A stretch of DNA of 16,784 nt from Polyangiales bacterium (GTDB lineage: Bacteria; Myxococcota_A; Polyangia; Polyangiales; Ga0077539): the NCBI GenBank assembly GCA_044375895.1, contig JBILLV010000200.1, positions 1 to 16,784 of the forward strand, in the 5' to 3' direction. A program made the position numbers and the translations under genes. The stretch's first letter is position 1, and each line of letters starts with the position of its first letter. Below are positions 2,957-15,667 of this stretch, piece by piece. Under the pieces are notes generated by a model. It was not told the DNA's origin. It searched no databases and saw nothing but the letters and a program-made list of their open reading frames with translations.

Positions 2957-3637
2957 CTACTTCTTCTCCTCTTCGAGCATCCCGTCGGGCAGGTCGTGCC
3001 CCATGCGACTCTGCTTCGCGCGAAGGTACTCCCGGCTGTACACGTTGACGGGGACGTTCACCGGGACGCGCCGCGTGATGCGCACGCCTTCAGCCTCCAG
3101 CCCGTCGACCTTCGCCGGGTTGTTGGTGAGCAGCGCCACCGAGCGGACGCCGAGCGCGCGCAGCATGTCGGCCGCGGGGCGGTAGCTCCGGAGGTCGTCG
3201 GCGAAGCCCAGGAGGCGGTTGGCGTCGACGGTGTCGTGCCCCTGCGACTGAAGCGCGTACGCGCGGATCTTGTTGCCGAGCCCGATGCCGCGCCCCTCCT
3301 GGCGGAGATAGAGCACGACGCCGGCGCCCGCCTCGGCGATGGCCCGGAGCGCGTGGTCAAGCTGCTCGCGGCAGTCGCACTTGAGCGAGTGGAGCGCCTC
3401 GCCCGTCCAACATTCGGAGTGGGCGCGCGCGAGGACGTCCTCGCCGTTCGCGACCTCGCCGCACACGATCGCGACGTGCTCAACGGGCGCGCATTGGGCG
3501 TCTAACCCGCAGGGGAGCTCGCGAAACACCACCACACGGAAGGCGCCGTACTCCGTCGGCACGTCCGCCTCGGCGTAGCGCTCGAGGGAGCTGGGAGGCA
3601 TCGGGGCGGAGGGGTCCATCGGTGGGGCGCGGAGCAT
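2957..3637 (-). CDS. ribA: GTP cyclohydrolase II (riboflavin biosynthesis)
   Basis: RAHSECWTGEALHSLKCDCREQL matches the RibA zinc-binding motif VHSECLTGD..SLRCDCGFQL. LYLRQEGRGIGLGNKIRAYALQSQGHDTVDAN and LLTNNPAKV are also conserved RibA blocks. Start is uncertain among the ATGs at 3637, 3619 and 3601; none has a clear Shine-Dalgarno. Confidence 0.9.
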   Translation of the reverse strand: MLRAPPMDPSAPMPPSSLERYAEADVPTEYGAFRVVVFRELPCGLDAQCAPVEHVAIVCGEVANGEDVLARAHSECWTGEALHSLKCDCREQLDHALRAIAEAGAGVVLYLRQEGRGIGLGNKIRAYALQSQGHDTVDANRLLGFADDLRSYRPAADMLRALGVRSVALLTNNPAKVDGLEAEGVRITRRVPVNVPVNVYSREYLRAKQSRMGHDLPDGMLEEEKK

Positions 3638-3712
3638 CGTCGGCGGGGGCGCCGCCCGTCAAGCGGTCCAGAATTTCGCGGACGCGCGGACGTGGGGATA
3701 TCGTCCCGCGCG

Positions 3713-4492
3713 ATGAAGATCGTCAGCTGGAACGTGAACGGCATCCGCTCGGCCTTGAAGAGCGGCTTCCTCGACTGGTTCAAGGCCACCGACCCCGACG
3801 TGCTCAACCTGCAGGAGATCCGTGCGGAGTGGGCCGAGCTCGACCTCTTCACGCAGCGCGAGCTGTCGGCGCACCACGACGTGTGCTGGTTCCCCGCGAC
3901 GTCGAAGAAGGGGTACTCGGGGGCGGCGACGCTCACGCGGAAGAAGCTCGGGTTCGCCCACACGAAGGGCCTCGGCATCGAGGCCTACGATGTGGAAGGG
4001 CGCATGGTGGTGAGCGAGCACCCGGCCTTCACCTTCATCGCGGGCTACTTCCCCAACGCCGCCGCCGAGCTCGTGAGGCTCCCGTACAAGCGCCAGTTTG
4101 CCCGCGACCTCGCGGCCTTCGTGCGCGCCCGCCACGCCCAGGGCAAGCGCGTCGTCGTCGTCGGAGACATGAACGTCGCCCCCGAAGAGATCGACCTCGC
4201 CAACCCGAAGACCAACCGCAAGAACCCCGGCTTCACCGACGAGGAGCGCGAAGACTTCCGCGGGTACCTCAAGGAAGACCTCGTGGACGTGCTCCGCGAG
4301 CGTCACCCCGGCGAGAAGGGCCTCTACAGCTGGTGGTCGCAGCGCGGCGCCGCCCGCGCGAAGAACGTCGGCTGGCGCATCGACATCTTCCTCGTCAGCC
4401 GTCCCCTCGCGGCGAAGGTCACCGACGCGCGGATTCACCCCGACGTGCGGGGCTCGGACCACTGCCCCATCTCCCTCGACCTCGACGTCTGA
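3713..4492 (+). CDS. xth: Exodeoxyribonuclease III (Xth/ExoA/APE1-family AP endonuclease)
   Basis: N-terminus MKIVSWNVNGIRSA is canonical for ExoIII (compare MKFVSFNINGLRAR and MKLISWNVNGLRAV). LNLQEIRA; catalytic-region blocks VVVVGDMNVAPEEIDL and WRIDIFLVS; C-terminal SDHCPISLDL. The EEP fold signature is clear. Confidence 0.92.
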   Translation: MKIVSWNVNGIRSALKSGFLDWFKATDPDVLNLQEIRAEWAELDLFTQRELSAHHDVCWFPATSKKGYSGAATLTRKKLGFAHTKGLGIEAYDVEGRMVVSEHPAFTFIAGYFPNAAAELVRLPYKRQFARDLAAFVRARHAQGKRVVVVGDMNVAPEEIDLANPKTNRKNPGFTDEEREDFRGYLKEDLVDVLRERHPGEKGLYSWWSQRGAARAKNVGWRIDIFLVSRPLAAKVTDARIHPDVRGSDHCPISLDLDV

Positions 4493-4495
4493 CCT

Positions 4496-5122
4496 TCAGC
4501 TTCGCGGCCGCATCCCGTCGAGGAGCACGTCGGCGAGCTGTGTGGCCGCGCGCTTGAGCCCGCCCGCCTCGGCGCTCCCGAGGGCCCACGTCATCGCGAT
4601 GCCGTCGAGCGCCCCGAAGATGGCGCGCGCCATGATGCGGGGAGAGACGTCCTCGCGGAGCTCGCCCGCGCGCTGCCCCTCGGCCACCACCGAGGCCATG
4701 AGCTCGAGGTACTCGGTGAAGCGCTTCGTCGCGTACTGCTTCAGCAGCCGCGACGACTGACGGAGGTTCACCGTGATCACCTCCGCGAGGTCGCGCTCGC
4801 CCTCCAGGAGCCCGAGCTGAAACTCCACGATGCGTCGCACGCGCGCGCCGCCCGGCGGGAGCCCCTCGACCTCGCGGCGCAGGAGTGTGAGCAGACGGGT
4901 GATGCGGTCTTCGAAGAGCGAGGTGAGGAGCTCGTCCTTGCTCTTGAAGTAGAGGTAGATGGTGCCGTCGGCCACACCCGCGGCCTTCGCGATCTCCGAC
5001 ACGCGCGAGGCGTAGAACCCTTTGCGCGCGAAGACCTTCACGGCCGCTCGGAGGATGCGCTCGCGCTTCTCGACGGCCTTGGGGTCGTCGCGGCGGCGCC
5101 CGCTGGGTCGCGGTTCATTCAC
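4496..5122 (-). CDS. TetR/AcrR-family transcriptional regulator
   Basis: N-terminal helix-turn-helix RERILRAAVKVFARKGFYASRVSEIAKAAGVADGTIYLYFKSKDELL is the textbook TetR signature. About 200 aa. Its stop is 3 nt from the convergent xth stop. Confidence 0.9.
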   Translation of the reverse strand: MNEPRPSGRRRDDPKAVEKRERILRAAVKVFARKGFYASRVSEIAKAAGVADGTIYLYFKSKDELLTSLFEDRITRLLTLLRREVEGLPPGGARVRRIVEFQLGLLEGERDLAEVITVNLRQSSRLLKQYATKRFTEYLELMASVVAEGQRAGELREDVSPRIMARAIFGALDGIAMTWALGSAEAGGLKRAATQLADVLLDGMRPRS

Positions 5123-5163: not shown

Positions 5164-6921
<1,758 letters not shown>

Positions 6922-7034
6922 GCGTTCACCTCTCGCCTGATTCCTTGCGCTTGCCCTCAGTGAAACGGCATCCGGCGCGAGAACTCAAGCCCCGAATGTC
7001 ACTCTTCAGACACCGCAGTGTCCGACCGGTGGGG

Positions 7035-8240
7035 TCATGTACGGCGCGCGGTCAGGGAGACACGCACCACCTCGGGCGGCGCCGCGAGGCGCACGGGCGG
7101 CCCGGTGATCCCCACGCCGCGCGAGACGAACAGGCTCGATCCGCCGCGTTGGTAGCGCCCCGCGACGAAGGGCATGAGCCGATCGGCGACGTGGCCGACG
7201 TTCACCTGGCCCCCGTGCGTGTGCCCCGAGAGCTGGAGCGCCACGCGGCCCGCAGCCTTGATGAAATACACAGGATTGTGAGCCAGCAGCACCACCGGCG
7301 CCTCCGGATCGGCCCCCGCGAGGGCGCGCCGCAGGTCGGGACCGGCCCCGCCAAACAGCCGCGGCGCCATCACGTCGTCGACCCCCGCGAGCGTGATCGA
7401 ACCCCGCCGCGGGTCGCCCGTGTGCACCTTCACCGCCGCGTTGACGAGGCACGAGATCCCTGCCGCCGCGAAGCCTCCTCGCACCGCCTCACGCCCGGTG
7501 TAGTGGTCGTGGTTGCCCAGGATCGCGTGAACGCCGAGGCGCCCCCGCAGCCGCGCGAGGGCCCGCACCGCGTCGGGCACGTGCGCCGGGTTGTTGTCGA
7601 GGATGTCGCCCGTGATCACCACGAGGTCGCCGCGCAGCGCGTTGACGCGCTCGATGAGGCGATCGAGCTCGCGGGGACCGGTGAAGATCCCGATGTGCAG
7701 GTCGGTGATCTGGACGATCGTGAGCCCGTCGAGGGAGGGCGGCAGGTCGGTGACGGTGACGCTCGCCTCGGTGAGCTGGAGGTCGTGCCGCTCGCGCAGA
7801 GCCCCGTAGAGCGTGGCCGCGCCCGCCGTGCCTGTGACTGCCAGAGAGAGGCCCTGCGCGATCACCTCGCGCCGCGTGGGAGCGTCTGGCGGCGGCGCCT
7901 CGGGGCGTGGGCGAAGCCGCTCGACGATGCGCCAGGCGTTGGACACGAAGTGGACGCCGAGGATGCCCGCGGCGCTGGCGAACAGGGTGAAGCCCGAGAG
8001 CCGCGAGAGCCACACGAGGGGTCGCCAGATGCCGCCGCCGACGGGCGCGTAGAGCCGCGCGCTGAGCTCGATGATCGTCGAGAGCGCCACGGCCGCGACG
8101 CATGCCACCAGGAGCCAGCGTCGCGTCGTGCGGCCCTCGGTGCGTCGCGGTGCGATCGCTCGCGCGGTGACGTAGAGGCCGAGGCCCACTTGAATCGCCA
8201 GCACCACGGCGAAGAACACGAGGCGCAGGAGGATGGCCAC
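7035..8240 (-). CDS. Membrane-anchored metallophosphoesterase (calcineurin-like, COG1408-type) with N-terminal transmembrane helices
   Basis: Metallophosphoesterase motifs ITDLHIG, ITGDILD, GNHDH and GHTHGGQ follow about four hydrophobic helices (VAILLRLVFFAVVLAIQVGLGLYV, WLLVACVAAVALSTII, FTLFASAAGILGVHFV, LSLAVTGTAGAATLYG). Start placed at the in-frame GTG at 8240, just before the first helix. The first ATG in frame is at 8462, but the 74 residues it adds are Arg/Gly-rich and non-protein-like. The start is therefore uncertain (8240 to 8462). Confidence 0.8.
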   Translation of the reverse strand: MAILLRLVFFAVVLAIQVGLGLYVTARAIAPRRTEGRTTRRWLLVACVAAVALSTIIELSARLYAPVGGGIWRPLVWLSRLSGFTLFASAAGILGVHFVSNAWRIVERLRPRPEAPPPDAPTRREVIAQGLSLAVTGTAGAATLYGALRERHDLQLTEASVTVTDLPPSLDGLTIVQITDLHIGIFTGPRELDRLIERVNALRGDLVVITGDILDNNPAHVPDAVRALARLRGRLGVHAILGNHDHYTGREAVRGGFAAAGISCLVNAAVKVHTGDPRRGSITLAGVDDVMAPRLFGGAGPDLRRALAGADPEAPVVLLAHNPVYFIKAAGRVALQLSGHTHGGQVNVGHVADRLMPFVAGRYQRGGSSLFVSRGVGITGPPVRLAAPPEVVRVSLTARRT

Positions 8241-8476
8241 GACGCGGCGATCATGGGGACAACGGCGCCCGCGCGCAACGACCACCCGCGCGAACGTCCC
8301 TGGCGAGGGGGCGAACGGCGCTGGACAACCCGCGGGCGCGCTCGTACCTTGTCGCCCTCTTTGGGGGCGCCTCAGCCTCCACCACGCCACCCCCAACCCG
8401 CCACACGTCACGCGTCTCGTCGCCGCCGCGCCCCCGCGGCCCCTTCGACGACGGCGCCCCACCCCATGGACACGCC

Positions 8477-11218
8477 ATGAGCATCGAGAACCGCCAGAAG
8501 ATCCCTGTCCCCCGCCGTTCGTTCCTGTGGTCGCTCAACGAGACCTCGGGCGAGATCCTCCTGCACGTCGGTCCGACGGAATTCACCCCGAGCGCCAACG
8601 ACCGCATCGTCCGCGCGAACGAGCGGGGCGGCTTCGAGCAGGCGCCGATGGAGGCGAGGCCCTTCATCGTCGCCCGCGACGGGGAGTACGTCATCCTCAC
8701 CAACCCGATGCGCGGCGACGTGACCGAGGAGTACTCCAACGGGGCGTACATCCCCGGCGGCAACAAGGAGAAGGAGCTCATCCTCGGCACGACGCGCATC
8801 ATCCCGGGGCCCTGCGCCTTTCCGCTCTGGCCGGGCCAGTCGGCGGAGGTGCGGCCCGCGCACAAGCTCGGCGCCAACCACTACCTCCTCGTCGAGGTGG
8901 TGGGCGCCGTCGAGGAGCGCGCGCGGTACTACAAGCTCCTCATCGCGTCGGCGGAGCTGTCGAGCGCCGTCATCGACGCCGGCGGCGACGCCACCGACGC
9001 CCAGGGCGCACCGGAGGCGGGCGCGGCGAAGGTCCCGTCGCAGCTCCGGCTGGGTCAGCGCATCGTGATCCAGGGCCGCCACACGCAGCTCTTCATCCCG
9101 CCGTCGGGCGTCGAGGTGGTGGCGCCCGTCGAGGACGTCGACCCGTCGCAGATGGCGCGCACCGACACGGACGAGGACGGCATCGCGACGCTCCCACCAG
9201 CCACGCAGCAGGAGTGCGCGAAGCTGGTGGCGCAGGTGCGCGAGGGCGTGAGCGCGAAGCAGTTCAGCGTGCTCAAGAACGAGCTGCGCCACCGCAGCGA
9301 CCTCACCACCGGGCAGCGCGCCATCGTGCTCACGGCCCTCGACGCGGCCTTCGAAGAGCGCGGCGCCGCCCTGGCGCCGCGCGCGCGCAAGTCGGGTGTC
9401 ACGGGCGAGCGGCGCGCCCAGGGCCAGCCCATGGACCCCTACGCCCGCCGCGCGGTGGTGCTCGGGCCGAAGGAGTTCTGCATCCTGTTCGACGCCGACG
9501 GCAACCCGCGCATCGTGAAGGGCCCGGCGCGCGTCTTCCCGGGGCCCCACGACACCTTCCTCCAGCGCGGCTCGCGGCGGCGCGTGTACGACGCCTACGA
9601 GCTCGCCGAGCACCAGGCGCTCTGGCTCCGCATCATCGCGCCCATCACGCGGGAGAAGCTCGCCCAGCGCGTGCCGCCGAGCGTCACCCTCGACCGCGAC
9701 GTCTTCCCGCCGGGCCACGAGATGATCGTGCGGGGCCAGCCGACGGTGTTCTTCCCGTTCATCGAGGCGGAGGTGATCCACCCCGAGACGCGCGAGCCCC
9801 ACGTCGGCAACGACCACGACGCCGTCGTGCTCACCGCCCTCGGCGTCGACCAGAAGAGCGGGGTGTACGTCCGCGACCTGCGCACGGGCATGGTGAAGAT
9901 GGTGCGCGGCGAGACCTCGTACCTCGTCGACCCGCGCTACGAGGAGCACGTCCACCGCCGCGTCCCGCGCGAGCAGTGGAACCTCTGGATCGGCCATGCG
10001 GAGCCCCACAAGGTGACCCGCGACGAGGCCGTCGCGACCCCGTGGGCCATCTCGGTGACCGTCCCCAACAACGAGGCCGTGCTCATCACGTCGCGCCACG
10101 GGCGCCGCGTCGAGGTCGGGCCCCGCGTCGCGCTCCTCGACTACGAGGAGAGCCTCACGGCGCTCCAGCTCTCCAAGGGCCCCTCGAAGGACGGCAAGGC
10201 CACGGTGACCACGTGCTTCCTCCGCGTGCGCGGCGGTCGCGTGTCTGACAGCTTCGAGCTCGACTCGGCGGACTTCGTGCGCTTCAAGGTGCGCCTCGGC
10301 TTCGCGGGGCACTTCGAAGGCGAGGGGGAGCGGTGGTTCCAGGTCGAAGACCCGGTGAAGCTCCTGGCCGACACCGTGCGCTCGCGGCTGCGCGAGGTGG
10401 CGCGCGCGACCCCCGCCACGCGGCTCCTCGCCGAGCTCCCGGCGCTCGTCCGCCGCAGCCTCTTCGGCGAGGGCGACGCGCTCCGCTTCGAGGAGAACGG
10501 CATGGTGATCGACCGCGTCGACGTGCTCGCCTCGTCGGTGGCCGACGGCTCCCTCGCCGAGCTCTTCAACACGGTGCAGCGCGAGTCGGTGAAGCTCCAG
10601 CTCCACGACCAGCAGGCCACGCGTCGGCTGGAGAGCGCGCGCCACCAGGACGCCGTCGACGCCGACCAGCAGCTCCTGCAGCGCGGCGCCGCGCAGCGCA
10701 AGGCGGAGACCGACGCCCACGCCGCCGAGGCCGCCCACGCCCTCGCGACGCGCACCGGCGAGCTCGAGGGCGAGCGCCGCGCGACAGACCTCGAGCGCTC
10801 GCAGCGCCACCAGGAGCGCGTCCTGGAGTTCGAGGTGCGCACCGAGCGCGAGATGTCCGAGGCCGCCGCGGCCCGGCGCCTCCGTGAAGCGGAGGCAGCA
10901 GCGCGCGCGTCGGAGCTCGGGCACAAGGTCGCCGAGTCCCACCTCGAGGCCGTCGCCCGCGTCGACACCGAGCGCGCCCGGGCCTTCGCCGAAGCCGACG
11001 CCATCAAGCTCCAGGCCGTCCAGGCCGAGCTCGTCGGCGCCCTCCACGCGGCTGCAGACAGCGAGGTGATGAAGGCCGCGGCCAACAACATGAACCTCGT
11101 CGCCCTCCTCGGCGGCCGCTCGCCCGCGGAGATCTTCCAGCAGCTCCTCGCGGGCACGCCCCTCGCCCGCACCGTCCGCGACATGCGCGAGCGCGCGCCC
11201 GGCGACGACGCCGAGTAG
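8477..11218 (+). CDS. Major vault protein (MVP) homolog, apparently full length: vault repeats, shoulder domain and cap-helix coiled-coil
   Basis: The 913 aa length is close to the roughly 890 aa of human MVP. Block-by-block similarity to human MVP, from memory: [38 protein letters not shown] against [50 protein letters not shown] against [35 protein letters not shown]...[11 protein letters not shown] against EIRLAQDPFPLYPGEVLEK...[50 protein letters not shown] against [45 protein letters not shown] against [41 protein letters not shown] against [33 protein letters not shown]. The C-terminal 250 aa are a long Ala/Glu/Arg-rich helical coiled-coil, like the MVP cap helix. No signal peptide. The opposite-strand ORF 8408..11047 is a low-complexity shadow. 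Confidence 0.85.
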   Translation: [913 protein letters not shown]

Positions 11219-11274: not shown

Positions 11275-12357
11275 ATGCGCGCGCTCTCCCTCACCCTCAC
11301 CGCAGTGCTCGCCCTCGGGTGCGGGGCCAAGACGGGCCTGCTCGTCCCCGACGTGCTCACCACGCCCGACACGGCGGACGTGCTCGACGCGCCCGACGTC
11401 GTCGACGGGCCCGACGTCTGCCAGCCGAGCCCGCTGCCCATCGAGCGCTTCGCCGCGGAGGTGATCTTCGTCATCGACCGCTCGGGCAGCATGGGCGAGC
11501 GCACGCGCACCGGCCTCACGCGCTGGCAGGCCGTCACCACCGCCCTGGCGCGCGTGCTGCCCGCCGTCGACCGCGAGCTGCTCGTCGGGCTGACGCAGTT
11601 TCCCGGCGCGACCAACGGCGACAACCAGTGCGGCGACAACAGCCGCATCGAGCTTGCCCCGCGGCTCCTCAACGCGCGCAACGTCCTCGCGGCGCTCGGG
11701 CGCACCACCCCCATGGGCGGGACGCCGACCTTCGAAGCGCTCCGCGCCGCCCAGACCTGGTACCGCACCACGCCCCCGTCGGGCCGCGTCCGCGGGCGCT
11801 ACCTCGTCCTCGCCACCGACGGCGGCCCCAACTGCAACGCCGCGCTCAACGGCGCCACCTGCTCGTGCACCAACTTCCGCACGGGCTGCAACCTCCCGCG
11901 CGGCGGCCTCGCGTGCCTCGACGACAACCGCACCATCGGCCTGCTCGGCGAGCTCGCCAGCACCAACATCGCCACCTTCATCATCGGGACGCCCGGCGAG
12001 GAAGGCGCATCGCTCCCGCAGACGCTCGACCGCATGGCCATCGCGGGCGGGCGGCCGCGGCCCGGCGCCGGCGCGTCGCGCTACTACCGCGCGGAGGACG
12101 TCGATGAGTTCGCGTCGGCCTTCCGCACCATCACGACGGAGCTGGTGCGCTGCCGCTACGTCACCAACCCCGTCGACGACCCCGCGCAGGTGAGCGTGCG
12201 CGTCGGCGGGCGCGAAGTCCCTCGCGACCCGTCGCGCGCCGACGGGTGGGACTGGACCTCGGTGTCGTCTGGGGAGGTGGTGCTCTTCGGCGCGGCCTGC
12301 GAGGCGTCGCAGCGGGTGGGCGGTGAAGTATCGATCCGTTACGGGTGCCAGCCGTAG
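11275..12357 (+). CDS. Lipoprotein with a von Willebrand factor type A (VWA) domain, a Cys-rich insert and a C-terminal Cys-containing domain
   Basis: Signal peptide plus lipobox: MRALSLTLTAVLALG|C. VWA MIDAS motif VIFVIDRSGSMGE (DxSxS), with conserved Thr and Asp positions in GGTPTFEAL and LVLATDGGPN. Seven-cysteine insert CNAALNGATCSCTNFRTGCNLPRGGLAC, consistent with an oxidising (periplasmic or surface) location. Acidic PDV(L/V)D peptide repeats in the linker after the lipobox. It lies 56 nt downstream of the MVP homolog on the same strand. The alternative-frame ORF 11235..12107 is Arg/Pro-rich and rejected. Confidence 0.8.
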   Translation: MRALSLTLTAVLALGCGAKTGLLVPDVLTTPDTADVLDAPDVVDGPDVCQPSPLPIERFAAEVIFVIDRSGSMGERTRTGLTRWQAVTTALARVLPAVDRELLVGLTQFPGATNGDNQCGDNSRIELAPRLLNARNVLAALGRTTPMGGTPTFEALRAAQTWYRTTPPSGRVRGRYLVLATDGGPNCNAALNGATCSCTNFRTGCNLPRGGLACLDDNRTIGLLGELASTNIATFIIGTPGEEGASLPQTLDRMAIAGGRPRPGAGASRYYRAEDVDEFASAFRTITTELVRCRYVTNPVDDPAQVSVRVGGREVPRDPSRADGWDWTSVSSGEVVLFGAACEASQRVGGEVSIRYGCQP

Positions 12358-12360
12358 CGA

Positions 12361-13323
12361 TCAGCCCGCGAGGGCCGCGTCGATGGCGCGCATCACGTCG
12401 TCGGTGAGCTTCGGGACGACCGCGAGGGCGCCGAGGTTCTCCTGGAGCTGCGACGTGCGGCTGGCGCCGAGGATCACGGTGCTGACGCGGGGGTTCTTGA
12501 GGCACCACGCGATGGCGAGCTGCGACAGCGGGACGCCGAGGTCGCTCGCCACCTTGCCGAGGCGCTTGACCACCACGAGGCGCGACGGGTCGGTGAGCAT
12601 CGGGCGGAGCCACTCCATGCCCGGCAGCGTCGCGCGCGCGCCCTCGGGAACGCCGTCGTTGTACTTGCCCGTGAGCAGGCCCGACGCGAGGGGGCTCCAC
12701 GTGGTGGTGCCGAGGCCGATGCGCTCGTAGAGGGCGGCGTACTCCGTCTCCACGCGGTCGCGGTGCAGGAGGTGGTACTGCGGCTGCTCCATCACGGGCT
12801 TGTGGAGGTGGTGGCGCTCGGCGATGTCCCAGGCCTCCTGGATCTGCGCCGCGCCCCACTCGGACGTCCCCCAGTAGAGCGCCCGACCCGTGCGGACGAT
12901 GTCGTGCATCGCCCAGACCGTCTCCTCCACGGGCGTGTCGGGGTCGGGGCGGTGGCAGAACACCAGGTCGACGTGGTCGAGCTGGAGGCGCTTCAGCGAG
13001 CCGTCGATCGACTCCAGCAGGTACTTGCGGTTGAGCGTGTTGCGCTCGTTGGGGCCGTCGTTGAGCCCCCAGTAGAACTTCGTCGACACCGCGTAGCTCG
13101 CGCGGCGCCACCCGGCCCGCTTGAGCACCCGGCCCATGATCGTCTCCGACTCGCCCTTCGCGTACACCTCCGCGTTGTCGAAGAAGTTCACCCCGGCGTC
13201 GTAGGCGGCGGCCATGCACTCGTGCGCGAGGTCGTCGTTCATCTGCTTGCCGTAGGTGACCCAGGAGCCGAAGGAGAGCTCGCTCACCTTCAGCCCCGCC
13301 CTGCCCAGTCGTCGGTACTGCAT
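12361..13323 (-). CDS. Aldo-keto reductase of the K+-channel beta-subunit-like (AKR6/Kv-beta) type; NADPH-dependent oxidoreductase
   Basis: Colinear similarity to Kv-beta2 throughout: [15 protein letters not shown] against LRVSCLGLGTWVTFG; [15 protein letters not shown] against YESGVNLFDTAEVYA; [19 protein letters not shown] against KKKGWRRSSLVITTKLYWG; [15 protein letters not shown] against YVDVVFANRPDSNTP; ALYWGTSEW against AMYWGTSRW; [15 protein letters not shown] against MTWSPLACGIISGKY; [12 protein letters not shown] against LPQLAVAWCLRN; [16 protein letters not shown] against LLGSSTPEQLIENLGA. Confidence 0.9.
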
Positions 13324-13349: not shown

Positions 13350-14546
13350 TCAGAACCCCGCCACCATGCCCAGCGTGAGCGTGTCCTGGCTCGCCGCCGA
13401 CGGGTCCGTCGCGCTCCCCTGATAGAACACCGGCGCCTCGGCGTGGTCGTGGCGGTACTCCAGCCGCGCGCTGAGGTGCTCGAAGGGAGCGTACTCCAGC
13501 GTCGCGGTCTGCGAGGTCATCCAGTCAGCCGCCCAGAAGATCCGTGTTCCCATGGCCGGCGCGCGGTCGAAGAAGAAGTCCGCACGCAGCGCGAGGCGGA
13601 GCGTGTCGGTGAGTTCGAAGCGCGCGTAGGCGGCCGCGGCGCTCCAGTAGTTGACGCCGAAGTTGTTGGGTTCGAAGCCGGCGTTGAGGTGGCCCATCAC
13701 CGTGACGCGTCGCCCGACCCGAACGCGCAGGTACACGTCGAAGAGGCTGCGCCACGCGACCCCCGCCGCGTCGGCCCGGTCGCGCTCGATGCCGCCGAAG
13801 TAGAGGGCGTTGAAGGTGACGTCCGCCGACGGCGCGTACGTGTATTGGAGCAGCACCGACTTGGCGACGTTGTTGTCGACGACGCTGTTCCACCCGTTGA
13901 AGACGCCGAAGGCGACGCTGTGACGCGCGTTGACGGTGTGGGTGACGCGCAGGCCCGTGTGGTAGAAGGGCAGGCCGTAGAAGAGGTTGGAGCGCGACCA
14001 GTTCCAGTTGTCGCGCACGGGCATGGCCTCGGGGCCGATGGGGGAGAGGAAGATGCCCGCCTCCACCAGCCACGCGCCCGCGCGCGCCCCGACGGTCGCC
14101 TGCTGGAGGTACTTCCACACCTCGGATCCAGTGGCCCCGACGCCCGCGAGGGCCCGCCGCGCGGGCTCGGCGCTGTAGTAGCTCTCGGGCGTGTGACCCA
14201 CCTGGAGCGCGAGCCGGCCCACCATCGCGCGGTACTGCCACGACGCGTCGAGCACGACGTTGGAGAGCGTGATGGTGTTGTGCCGGTTGTCGAAGCCGCG
14301 CCAGGCCGTCACCCCGTTCTCGGGGTTGTTGAAGTTCCACTGGTAGAGGGCTTCGACGTAGCCCGCGAGGGTGAGCGTCGCGCGCCCGGAAGAGAGCACG
14401 AACGGAGAGGCCGGCGCCTCTGGCGACGAGGGCTGTGCGGCGGTGAGCTCCAGCGGTCGCGTCGCCTCCGTCGCAGGGACCTCCTGCGCGCTGGCGCCCC
14501 CGGCGAAGAGGAGCGCGGCGATGCCCACGAAGCGATGCCCTCTCAT
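13350..14546 (-). CDS. Outer-membrane beta-barrel protein (porin-like; possibly the BBP2 family)
   Basis: Signal peptide [20 protein letters not shown]|QE, with GGAG 7 nt upstream of ATG 14546. A long body of alternating amphipathic strands rich in Y, W, F, G and N ([59 protein letters not shown]). The C-terminal residue is Phe (...LGMVAGF), typical of BAM-dependent outer-membrane proteins. Its start ATG overlaps the stop of the upstream gene (ATGA). The longer ORF extending to 14684 has an Arg/Gly-rich N-terminal extension and is rejected. Confidence 0.75.
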
Positions 14547-15667
14547 AGAATCTCCACGATGCGCACGCCGACGTCGCCCTCGATGTCCACGAGCTCGCCG
14601 CGCGCGATGGCCCGCCCGCTCGCCCGCACGGTCACCACGTCTCCCACCCGCGCGCGAAACGGCACCACCTCGCCCGCGCGCCACGCGGCCACCTCGGCGA
14701 AGGAGAAGGACTCCCGCGCGATCTCGACCGCGACCTCCACCGGGAGCGTCGCCAGCTGCGCCTCGTCGTCGTGATCTTCCATGAAGGGCACCAGTGCGCC
14801 GCAGAGCACCACCGCGCCGTCGTCGCGGAGCCGCGCCGCGCGCGCGAGCCCGGGAGGATGCCCCATGGCGACGGAGACGTCACCCCTCAGCGTGCCCTCG
14901 CAGAGAGAGAGCCCGTCGAGCGCGATCACCTCCCCCCGCGCGAGCGAGGCCAGCGCCGAGAGCGTCCAACGCGCTCGACCCGCCACCGCCGATGCGACGA
15001 CCGGGAGATCGTCGAGGCGTCGCCAGGAGGGTGAGTCGAAGGCCGGGCGCGCGTCGCGCTCCAACACCACCGTGACCCGCGCGGAGCGCTCGCCGAGCGC
15101 GAGCGTCCAGGGCCACGCGAGGAGGGGATCGCCGTGGAGCGCCGCGATCGCGTCGGGGAGGTCGTCGGTGATGGCGCGGACCACGGGCGGTGGCGCCGGA
15201 TCGAAGGCGCGCGCGAGCAGTCGGGCGGTGAGCGCGGTGAGGGCACCTTCCCAGCGCGGCGCGAGGGGGCCGTGCGGCGCGTAAGTGACCTCGGGCGCGT
15301 CCGGGCCGCCGAGGCAGCGCTGCGCGAGGGAGAGCGCGAAGGGGCGGTCGCACGCCACCACGGCGCACCCGTGGCGCAGCGAGAGCACGGCGGCGAGCGT
15401 CGCGCGGTCGAGGGAGCGAAGGAGCGTCCCGCGATCGGTCAGGGCGGGCGCGTGCGGCTGCGCGACCAGCGGAGCGCCCAGGAGCGCGCGGAGGCCGCCG
15501 TCGCGCTGCGGCCGCGGCTGCGAGGGCGCGCCGAGGCCACGAACGAGTGCGCGGACGAGGGCCACGTCGCGCCGTCGCCAGCGCGGCAATGAAGCGTAGG
15601 GGAAGGGCAGCGCGAGGTCGCTCACCGCGTGTGGCACACGAGAGCGCGCCGCCCGAGACGACGTCAA
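14543..15667 (-). CDS. SpoA (FliN/SctQ-family) domain protein; cytoplasmic C-ring-type component of type III secretion or flagellar systems
   Basis: The C-terminal 70 aa, [70 protein letters not shown], match the SpoA/FliN consensus (...vpvevsvelG.t.ltl.ell.L.vGdvi.L......pv.l.vng..ia.GElv.vdg..gvri.ei) almost position by position. The 300-aa N-terminal region is not recognised. Stop overlaps the start of the downstream beta-barrel gene. The start could be the ATG at 15667 or an internal site. Confidence 0.7.
   Translation of the reverse strand: MTSSRAARSRVPHAVSDLALPFPYASLPRWRRRDVALVRALVRGLGAPSQPRPQRDGGLRALLGAPLVAQPHAPALTDRGTLLRSLDRATLAAVLSLRHGCAVVACDRPFALSLAQRCLGGPDAPEVTYAPHGPLAPRWEGALTALTARLLARAFDPAPPPVVRAITDDLPDAIAALHGDPLLAWPWTLALGERSARVTVVLERDARPAFDSPSWRRLDDLPVVASAVAGRARWTLSALASLARGEVIALDGLSLCEGTLRGDVSVAMGHPPGLARAARLRDDGAVVLCGALVPFMEDHDDEAQLATLPVEVAVEIARESFSFAEVAAWRAGEVVPFRARVGDVVTVRASGRAIARGELVDIEGDVGVRIVEIL

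Follow-up and report, generated by a model that had tools for sequence, protein, structure and literature searches.

Vaults are among the largest protein particles of eukaryotes, and after about 40 years what they do is still unclear. The N-terminal repeats in the major vault protein (MVP) extend the wall of the particle and the first repeat (R1) pairs its two halves, 39-fold half-vaults that make up a closed 78-mer. Recent vault papers still call the MVP domains unique to the eukaryotic vault. Bacterial homologs have been analysed in silico since 2013. Daly 2013 (PMC3762200) lists proteins from Plesiocystis and Corallococcus that are predicted to fold and dock like MVP, and Sokolskyi 2019 (bioRxiv 10.1101/872010) and Santos 2023 (bioRxiv 10.1101/2023.11.10.566534) treat bacterial and phage MVPs in silico. 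The gene considered here lies at 8477..11218 on the plus strand of contig JBILLV010000200.1 from an uncultured Polyangiales bacterium (assembly GCA_044375895.1; the whole 16,784-nucleotide stretch analysed is called the window below). It encodes a 913-residue protein and is a further member of this already described and annotated kind.

The published bacterial proteins (Plesiocystis pacifica A6FXM1/A6FXE2, Corallococcus H8MNI3, Enhygromyxa salina A0A0C2D5V5 and Saprospira H6L4P8) resemble the Polyangiales protein, with which they share the phylum, as far as their available descriptions go, in the MVP fold assigned in silico, and differ from it in that it comes from an uncultured lineage. A count of seven repeats, a variable module between R3 and R6 and a cap helix quantised in steps of 11 residues are not described in the accessible text of the three studies. 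New here are a domain map with seven repeats and a variable module at the place of eukaryotic R4-R5; a family size of about 1200 clusters at 50% identity, including bacteria of the candidate phyla radiation and very large phages; a cap helix of eukaryotic length that changes mainly by 11 residues, as expected of a register-constrained helical assembly; and the absence of a conserved partner gene across 19 loci and six subfamily contexts. Literature searches found no experimental work on bacterial MVP, in agreement with an earlier reading of the window made without database searches (the sequence-only reading), which held that none is characterised. The surprise to specialists is limited. The family remains a possible route to the vault problem, with the map of seven repeats, the junction of variable length and the quantisation of the cap helix as experimental handles, and a bacterial homolog in a simple context, a single gene that has neither TEP1, PARP4 nor vault RNA close by, could give a tractable test of the function and origin of the MVP shell.

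Homology to the major vault protein

The 913-residue protein is almost certainly an MVP homolog. A phmmer search against all PDB sequences returned MVP chains only (E 4e-16, query residues 328-840 onto MVP 275-801), and a 30-sequence family profile matched the PDB MVP chains at E 7e-37 over R6-R9 and beyond, from about query residue 318. The Pfam MVP_shoulder family (PF11978) scores 44.4 bits against a gathering score of 25 (E 2e-11), with residues 589-690 covering positions 5-118 of the 118-position profile. Pfam is marginal for the repeats: Vault_3 reaches 28.9 bits against a gathering score of 28.8 at residues 527-580, Vault_4 stays below threshold at residues 455-491 (15.5 against 22.9), and Vault (PF01505) has no match in the protein. 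The two Pfam families named for checking in the sequence-only reading were thus divided, the shoulder being recovered and PF01505 not.

The N-terminal repeats come within reach when a 72-sequence profile is aligned by hhalign with human MVP 1-549, a reference sequence 100% identical to a PDB chain. A single collinear alignment (probability 99.7%, E 6e-27) places query 9-614 onto MVP 8-548, recovering R1-R3 and then R6-R9 and the start of the shoulder, and its confidence collapses only over query residues from about 218 to 322. The R1 motif IPVP...HVGP...NDRIV pairs with human IPPY...EVGP...NERVL, the R2 motif FPLWPGQ with human FPLYPGE, and a query segment opening IVIQG with human R3. Vault repeats are therefore detectable by sequence, marginally in Pfam alone and clearly by profile search and hhalign. 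The N-terminal motifs picked out by the sequence-only reading are borne out by these pairings, and significant matches to Vault repeats lie outside the generic SPFH/band-7 region to which a false lead might have been confined. Its claim of an alignment over essentially the whole length was too wide: the single-sequence and profile hidden Markov model searches extend only from about residue 318 or 328 to 840 (MVP 275-801), hhalign adds R1-R3, and residues from about 218 to 322 lack a counterpart in MVP R4-R5 and are predicted to be helical throughout.

When human MVP 1-549 was searched with phmmer against 406 collected proteins, the family of the Polyangiales protein was among the closest (54-74 bits). 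Internal repeat detection was also tried; in hhalign the N-terminal and middle thirds of the family alignment matched each other only weakly (probability 7.6%). Divergence among the repeats is too great for them to be recognised within the protein, and comparison with human MVP was required in its place. NCBIfam, PHROGs and PADLOC have no match for the MVP-like protein, and the PADLOC defence-system models match neither it nor either of its neighbours.

Domain organisation and predicted structure

A first AlphaFold2 (AF2) model, built on a shallow 30-sequence alignment, had a predicted local distance difference test score (pLDDT) of 58 and was uninformative in the repeat regions. A second model, based on a 72-sequence alignment with distant homologs, has a mean pLDDT of 80.8. 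Its top 12 Foldseek matches are all vault chains (E 4e-36 to 3e-28), and the crystal structure of murine R1-R7 is matched at E 3e-16 with template modelling (TM) scores of 0.53-0.55. The model contains small beta-domains in tandem, as in the vault repeats, an SPFH fold in the shoulder and a single long cap helix directly after it, so that the tandem repeats, whose absence from a predicted structure the sequence-only reading had named as evidence against a vault protein, are present.

Seven repeats can be placed, all on the plus strand. R1 (8501..8650, residues 9-58) consists of beta strands at pLDDT 82-92, with residues 9-45 aligned onto human MVP 8-44; its N41-D42-R43 pairs with human N40-E41-R42 in hhalign, and its mean identity is 90% across 30 family members. 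R2 (8651..8839, residues 59-121), formed of beta strands in AF2, and R3 (8840..9127, residues 122-217) align with their human namesakes in hhalign. Within R3 there are an inserted helix (152-159) and an acidic loop that is disordered (169-186; pLDDT below 50), the net charge of which averages -3.6 and is never positive in 120 relatives. The R6 equivalent (9443..9613, residues 323-379), recognised by phmmer, profile and hhalign comparison with human MVP, is the most conserved domain of the family at 92% mean identity. It is followed by the R7 equivalent (9614..9832, residues 380-452; phmmer, profile, hhalign and AF2), the R8 equivalent with a helix at 498-505 (9833..10024, residues 453-516; phmmer, hhalign and the sub-threshold Vault_4 match) and the R9 equivalent (10025..10234, residues 517-586; Vault_3, hhalign and AF2). 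The loop G-P-S-K-D-G-K (residues 568-574, nucleotides 10178-10198) at the boundary of R9 and the shoulder pairs with human K506-R507-P508-H509, and K571 is invariant in 72 diverse homologs. An NAD+/ADP-ribose pocket at this loop was considered and rejected, the ligand-contacting residues of the human protein not being kept residue for residue.

At the position of eukaryotic R4-R5 stands a module of five helices (9143..9385, residues 223-303; AF2 helices 223-229, 233-237, 241-257, 260-271 and 278-303), with pLDDT of about 90 over residues 241-300 and no confident hhalign match to human R4-R5. A disordered basic linker follows (9386..9442, residues 304-322; pLDDT below 50 for 302-318); it has low sequence identity and a net charge averaging +2.2 that is never negative in 120 relatives. 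At the R3/R6 junction several other subfamilies, bacterial and phage, have a segment of only 5-10 residues and others one of up to 157, and the junction is therefore a variable insertion site. The sequence-only reading had proposed counting repeats against the nine of human MVP; the count is seven, R1-R3 plus the R6-R9 equivalents, residues 223-303 being helical. Nine repeats mark the eukaryotic form rather than the superfamily, since other bacterial subfamilies keep only 5-10 residues at the R4-R5 site.

The alpha/beta, SPFH-like shoulder (10235..10546, residues 587-690), supported by PF11978 and AF2, was foreseen in the sequence-only reading as a shoulder-like segment. The continuous cap helix (10547..11017, residues 691-847) was foreseen there as an Ala/Glu/Arg-rich helix of roughly 250 residues, of which the composition holds (34 Ala, 22 Glu and 21 Arg of 157) and the length does not, the AF2 helix having 157 residues and being followed by about 55 residues of short helices. 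It pairs with rat MVP up to residue 801. The C-terminal short helices (11018..11215, residues 848-913; AF2 helices 850-858, 861-875, 883-891 and 897-905) stand at the position of the cap-ring region. They have low-to-moderate pLDDT and include a 25-residue motif at 69% mean identity. The highest 19-residue Kyte-Doolittle window of the protein is 1.05 and its N-terminus has no signal-peptide-like hydrophobic stretch; by its sequence, it is a soluble, cytoplasmic protein.

The protein thus shares with eukaryotic MVP (human Q14764; rat vault 4V60/4HL8; human 9BW5) the collinear R1-R3 and R6-R9, the SPFH-like shoulder, a single cap helix that is equally long, short helices at the C-terminus, the R1 motif VGP...N[DE]R, the R2 motif FPL[WY]PG[QE], and solubility without a membrane anchor. 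It differs in having seven repeats rather than nine, with the five-helix module and basic linker in place of R4-R5, and in the extra acidic loop of R3. The PARP4 MINT domain docks on R3-R5 in human vaults (PMC12280208). Sequence identity between eukaryotic MVP and the bacterial protein is about 17-27%, and assembly of the latter is a prediction.

Cap helix and proposed assembly

The protein is best placed as a bacterial-branch member of the MVP family, within the SPFH cage superfamily, and by analogy a vault-type cage seems its reasonably probable assembly. All solved proteins in which an SPFH domain is followed by a long helix form a ring-shaped dome. As in vaults and other SPFH cages, lateral contacts between protomers along the repeat wall, the shoulder and the cap helix would build a high-order cyclic dome. 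Two such domes would probably pair through the highly conserved R1 into a closed shell, a barrel shorter than the eukaryotic vault, and the family-specific helical module and charged loops may serve as a docking surface for enclosed cargo. The gene would be expressed on its own, and it has no partner gene common to the family.

Several features hint at assembly. The cap helix pairs end to end with the rat cap helix in the phmmer and profile alignments; the latter reportedly spans residues 647-802 by the boundaries of Tanaka et al. 2009, that is, 156 residues. In 119 relatives the cap helix is 157, 146, 135 or 153 residues long, with no other length, and the deletions, which fall at no fewer than three positions, comprise 27 runs of 11 residues, one of 22 and three of 4. 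As 11 residues make three helical turns, the helical register is preserved, which fits a helix packed along its whole length; the eukaryote-like length together with the 11-residue steps is a hint of a register-constrained helical assembly. Human MVP N40 is part of a polar network at the vault waist and R42 is a conserved waist residue, so that the R1 N-D-R motif, standing at waist-residue positions, may be read as a second hint. The very high conservation of R1 and of the R6 equivalent (90-92%) would be a third, and the lack of a membrane-anchoring segment also counts in favour of assembly.

Other observations weigh against cage formation. The 11-residue deletions may stand for only three or four independent events, and a Fourier test along the cap helix found no 3.5-3.67-residue periodicity of hydrophobicity or conservation above shuffles. 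AF2 confidence falls to pLDDT 55-75 in the middle of the helix and is lower at the C-terminus too. Two of the nine eukaryotic repeats are absent by both hhalign and AF2. The human NAD+/ADP-ribose pocket residues R507, P508 and H509 correspond to D572, G573 and K574 and are not conserved, and neither TEP1 (TROVE), PARP4/PARP nor vault RNA was found within the window by Pfam and Rfam scans. Cage formation is argued here from analogy.

The alternative that survives best, an unlikely one, is an open half-cage of SPFH type apposed to the cytoplasmic face of the inner membrane, like those of HflK/C, flotillin, prohibitin and QmcA, with no free closed vault. Solved SPFH assemblies other than vaults are all membrane half-cages, and canonical SPFH/band-7 proteins (HflK/C, QmcA, stomatin, prohibitin, erlin, flotillin) carry an N-terminal membrane anchor; in the Polyangiales protein, about 590 residues forming the seven MVP repeats precede the SPFH domain and occupy the place of that anchor, and no transmembrane or strongly hydrophobic segment is found. 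Even eukaryotic vaults can bind membranes (bioRxiv 10.64898/2025.12.12.693869), and envelope proteins, a membrane phosphoesterase and a lipoprotein, are encoded on both flanks of the gene, yet no NfeD or FtsH-type protease partner occurs in the window. The protein has no Pfam Band_7 (PF01145) match at E<=1, and it still has a highly conserved R1, through which half-vaults pair.

A protein that forms no cage at all is improbable as well. It would then be elongated, a scaffold or filament in a monomeric or low-order state; a spacer resembling TolA and a nucleotide-binding protein are examples on which the 2019 preprint (bioRxiv 10.1101/872010) speculated. The Ala/Glu/Arg-rich helix recalls the low-complexity domain II of TolA, and this composition is the sole likeness, the MVP-like protein having no transmembrane segment or membrane anchor, no TolA match in Pfam or NCBIfam and no TolA domain III. 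The lack of hydrophobic periodicity in the cap helix, the loss of two repeats and the lack of partner genes suit a non-assembling protein; the helix length, in contrast, is conserved and equal to the eukaryotic one with indels in 11-residue steps, the small surface-exposed domains R1 and R6 are very highly conserved, and an SPFH domain with a long helix makes a ring in every solved protein that has both.

Vault-type particles, should they form, would add a new class to the bacterial nanocompartments and could provide a self-assembling shell for engineering that is expressible in prokaryotes. A wider proposal can be put forward only tentatively and may well prove wrong. Closed vault-like shells, with a seven-repeat wall in which the lineage-specific module at the R3/R6 junction is the cargo dock, would be assembled by Myxococcota and, extending the idea, by many further bacteria and certain large phages; the MVP architecture would have arisen among bacteria, which show far more diversity of it, and the nine-repeat vault of eukaryotes would be derived by gaining R4-R5 at the same junction.

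Family distribution and origin of the gene

The sequence-only reading had described bacterial MVP-like reading frames as a handful of database curiosities. This was a considerable underestimate: an exhaustive profile search of 1.84 billion cluster representatives yielded 1195 clusters (50% identity) at E<=1e-3 and 544 at E<=1e-30, and homologs have been in the literature since 2013. More than 400 relatives were collected at E<=1e-5, and Myxococcota alone hold over 400 close ones. The 120 best cover the full length with identities of 59-100%; where an organism name is given, it is one of Polyangiales, Labilithrix, Nannocystis, Sandaracinaceae and Bradymonadia. For several close relatives, those of Nannocystis, Labilithrix and Sandaracinaceae among them, IMG and UniRef already give the name 'major vault protein' or 'MVP shoulder domain-containing protein', and a public source calls a 913-residue member of the 90%-identity cluster of the query 'major vault protein'. 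The top 150 clusters match at E 1e-82 or better and the solved eukaryotic MVP chains at 1e-37, with the same profile in different databases.

Full-length MVP-like proteins of 872-1086 residues were also found in Patescibacteria/Parcubacteria (P0282, P0371 and P0142), whose small genomes make them unexpected hosts for a shell protein of about 100 kDa. Huge uncultured phages of 462-735 kb (LR756500.1, LR756501.1 and LR756503.1) have unannotated MVP-like open reading frames (ORFs) with 26-32% identity over about half of the query.

The gene has an ATG start and encodes 913 residues plus a stop; its identification draws on the Pfam and PDB matches, hhalign, AF2, the fold matches and the conserved start. 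Its GC content at the three codon positions (0.75/0.46/0.97) is a typical coding pattern, which the long ORFs that overlap it in other frames do not have. The neighbouring genes have a third-position GC (GC3) of 0.88-0.98, and the GC of the window is 0.66-0.77 all along. The N-terminus M-x-x-E-x-RQKIP is kept in nearly all of 18 related loci with the 5' end on the contig, and the ATG start is credible for this reason. An ORF of 511 codons at 6945-8480 (+) overlaps this start by ATGA and resembles a translationally coupled upstream gene; with a GC3 of 0.75, it was rejected as a non-coding shadow of the minus-strand phosphoesterase gene. An upstream ORF of four codons at 8466-8480 (ATG GAC ACG CCA TGA), the stop of which overlaps the MVP start, was dismissed because it is found only in the window and the closest related locus (L001) and not in more distant loci.

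The intergenic region 5' of the gene is 236 nucleotides long. It contains a promoter-like block (8322..8350, plus strand) made of TGGACA (8322-8327), a 17-nucleotide spacer and TACCTT (8345-8350), which in the alignment with L001 is the best-conserved block of an otherwise diverged upstream region. A consensus scan of the region found no strict sigma-70 site, and this conservation weakly suggests the block as a candidate promoter.

The closest genome locus is that of the Polyangiales metagenome-assembled genome (MAG) STL-MYX9, with a protein 91% identical and gene order kept over most of the window except for the phosphoesterase gene, which it lacks, and the identical protein is present in several independent metagenome assemblies. 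The gene is native to a Polyangiales (Myxococcota) genome, as composition, synteny and family distribution show. That MVP is best known from eukaryotes, and that Daly 2013 (PMC3762200) weighs eukaryote-to-bacterium transfer for cyanobacterial copies, are the points in favour of eukaryotic contamination or recent transfer from a eukaryote, an explanation of negligible probability that is already refuted by a GC3 and codon-position GC like those of the neighbours, by bacterial surroundings syntenic with a Polyangiales MAG, by only 14-21% identity to MVP in fold alignments and by the family distribution given above. The sequence-only reading had argued likewise from composition that the gene is neither a contaminant nor a fresh transfer, and on this it was right.

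Genomic context

The window is an ordinary Myxococcota chromosomal neighbourhood. Upstream of the MVP-like gene, framing by GC3 and Pfam identifies an M10-type peptidase (1266-2150, +), an ECF sigma factor (2224-2928, +), a GTP cyclohydrolase II (2957-3637, -), an endo/exonuclease/phosphatase (3692-4492, +), a TetR regulator (4496-5122, -) and a Ser/Thr kinase (5164-6921, -). Next comes the membrane metallophosphoesterase (7035-8240, -), which has N-terminal hydrophobic segments and is YaeI/LpxG-like, below the cutoffs of both families. It is missing at the matching place in an otherwise syntenic Polyangiales MAG (L001 7625-8000), and its position is therefore an indel. Downstream, a VWA lipoprotein gene (11275-12357, +) starts 56 nucleotides after the MVP-like gene.

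When the ORFs of 19 related loci were clustered, the VWA gene alone recurred, and only in a clade of at least 80% identity (the window and L001-L004). The VWA protein begins MRALSLTLTAVLALGC, a lipobox, and has a weak likeness to the gliding-motility lipoprotein CglB (94 bits against a cutoff of 200). It recalls the VWA domain of PARP4 and was considered as a partner in the lumen, a role that was rejected since it is an exported lipoprotein and adjacent only in that clade. Six contexts from other subfamilies share no common neighbour, and scanning the window for Rfam families and tRNAs gave no match. With no neighbour conserved over the 19 loci or the six subfamily contexts, and with no Rfam, tRNA, TROVE or PARP match in the window, the MVP-like gene behaves as a stand-alone gene.

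In phage-like contigs of about 165-200 kb (L024, also L025), an 828-residue MVP-like gene (7001-9487) directly follows a DUF2828+DUF7788 gene (5345-6871), which is phrog_850, 'RNA-binding protein', and weakly VWA-like. The pair recalls the TROVE and VWA partners of eukaryotic vaults, but a TEP1/TROVE link by way of DUF2828 is unproven: DUF2828 occurs in 694 phage records, MVP-like matches in only 3, and by sequence DUF2828 matches neither the PDB nor TROVE.

Beyond the lipoprotein gene, an aldo-keto reductase (12361-13323, -), a BBP2 porin (13350-14684, -) and, from 15679 onward, a second Ser/Thr kinase (+) were framed by GC3 and Pfam. An ORF with a FliN/FliM C-terminal domain (PF01052) at 14543-15667 (-) overlaps the porin gene. 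Public gene calls shorten this FliN-like gene to 107 residues, and it may be a remnant or a repurposed component of a switch or type III secretion system.

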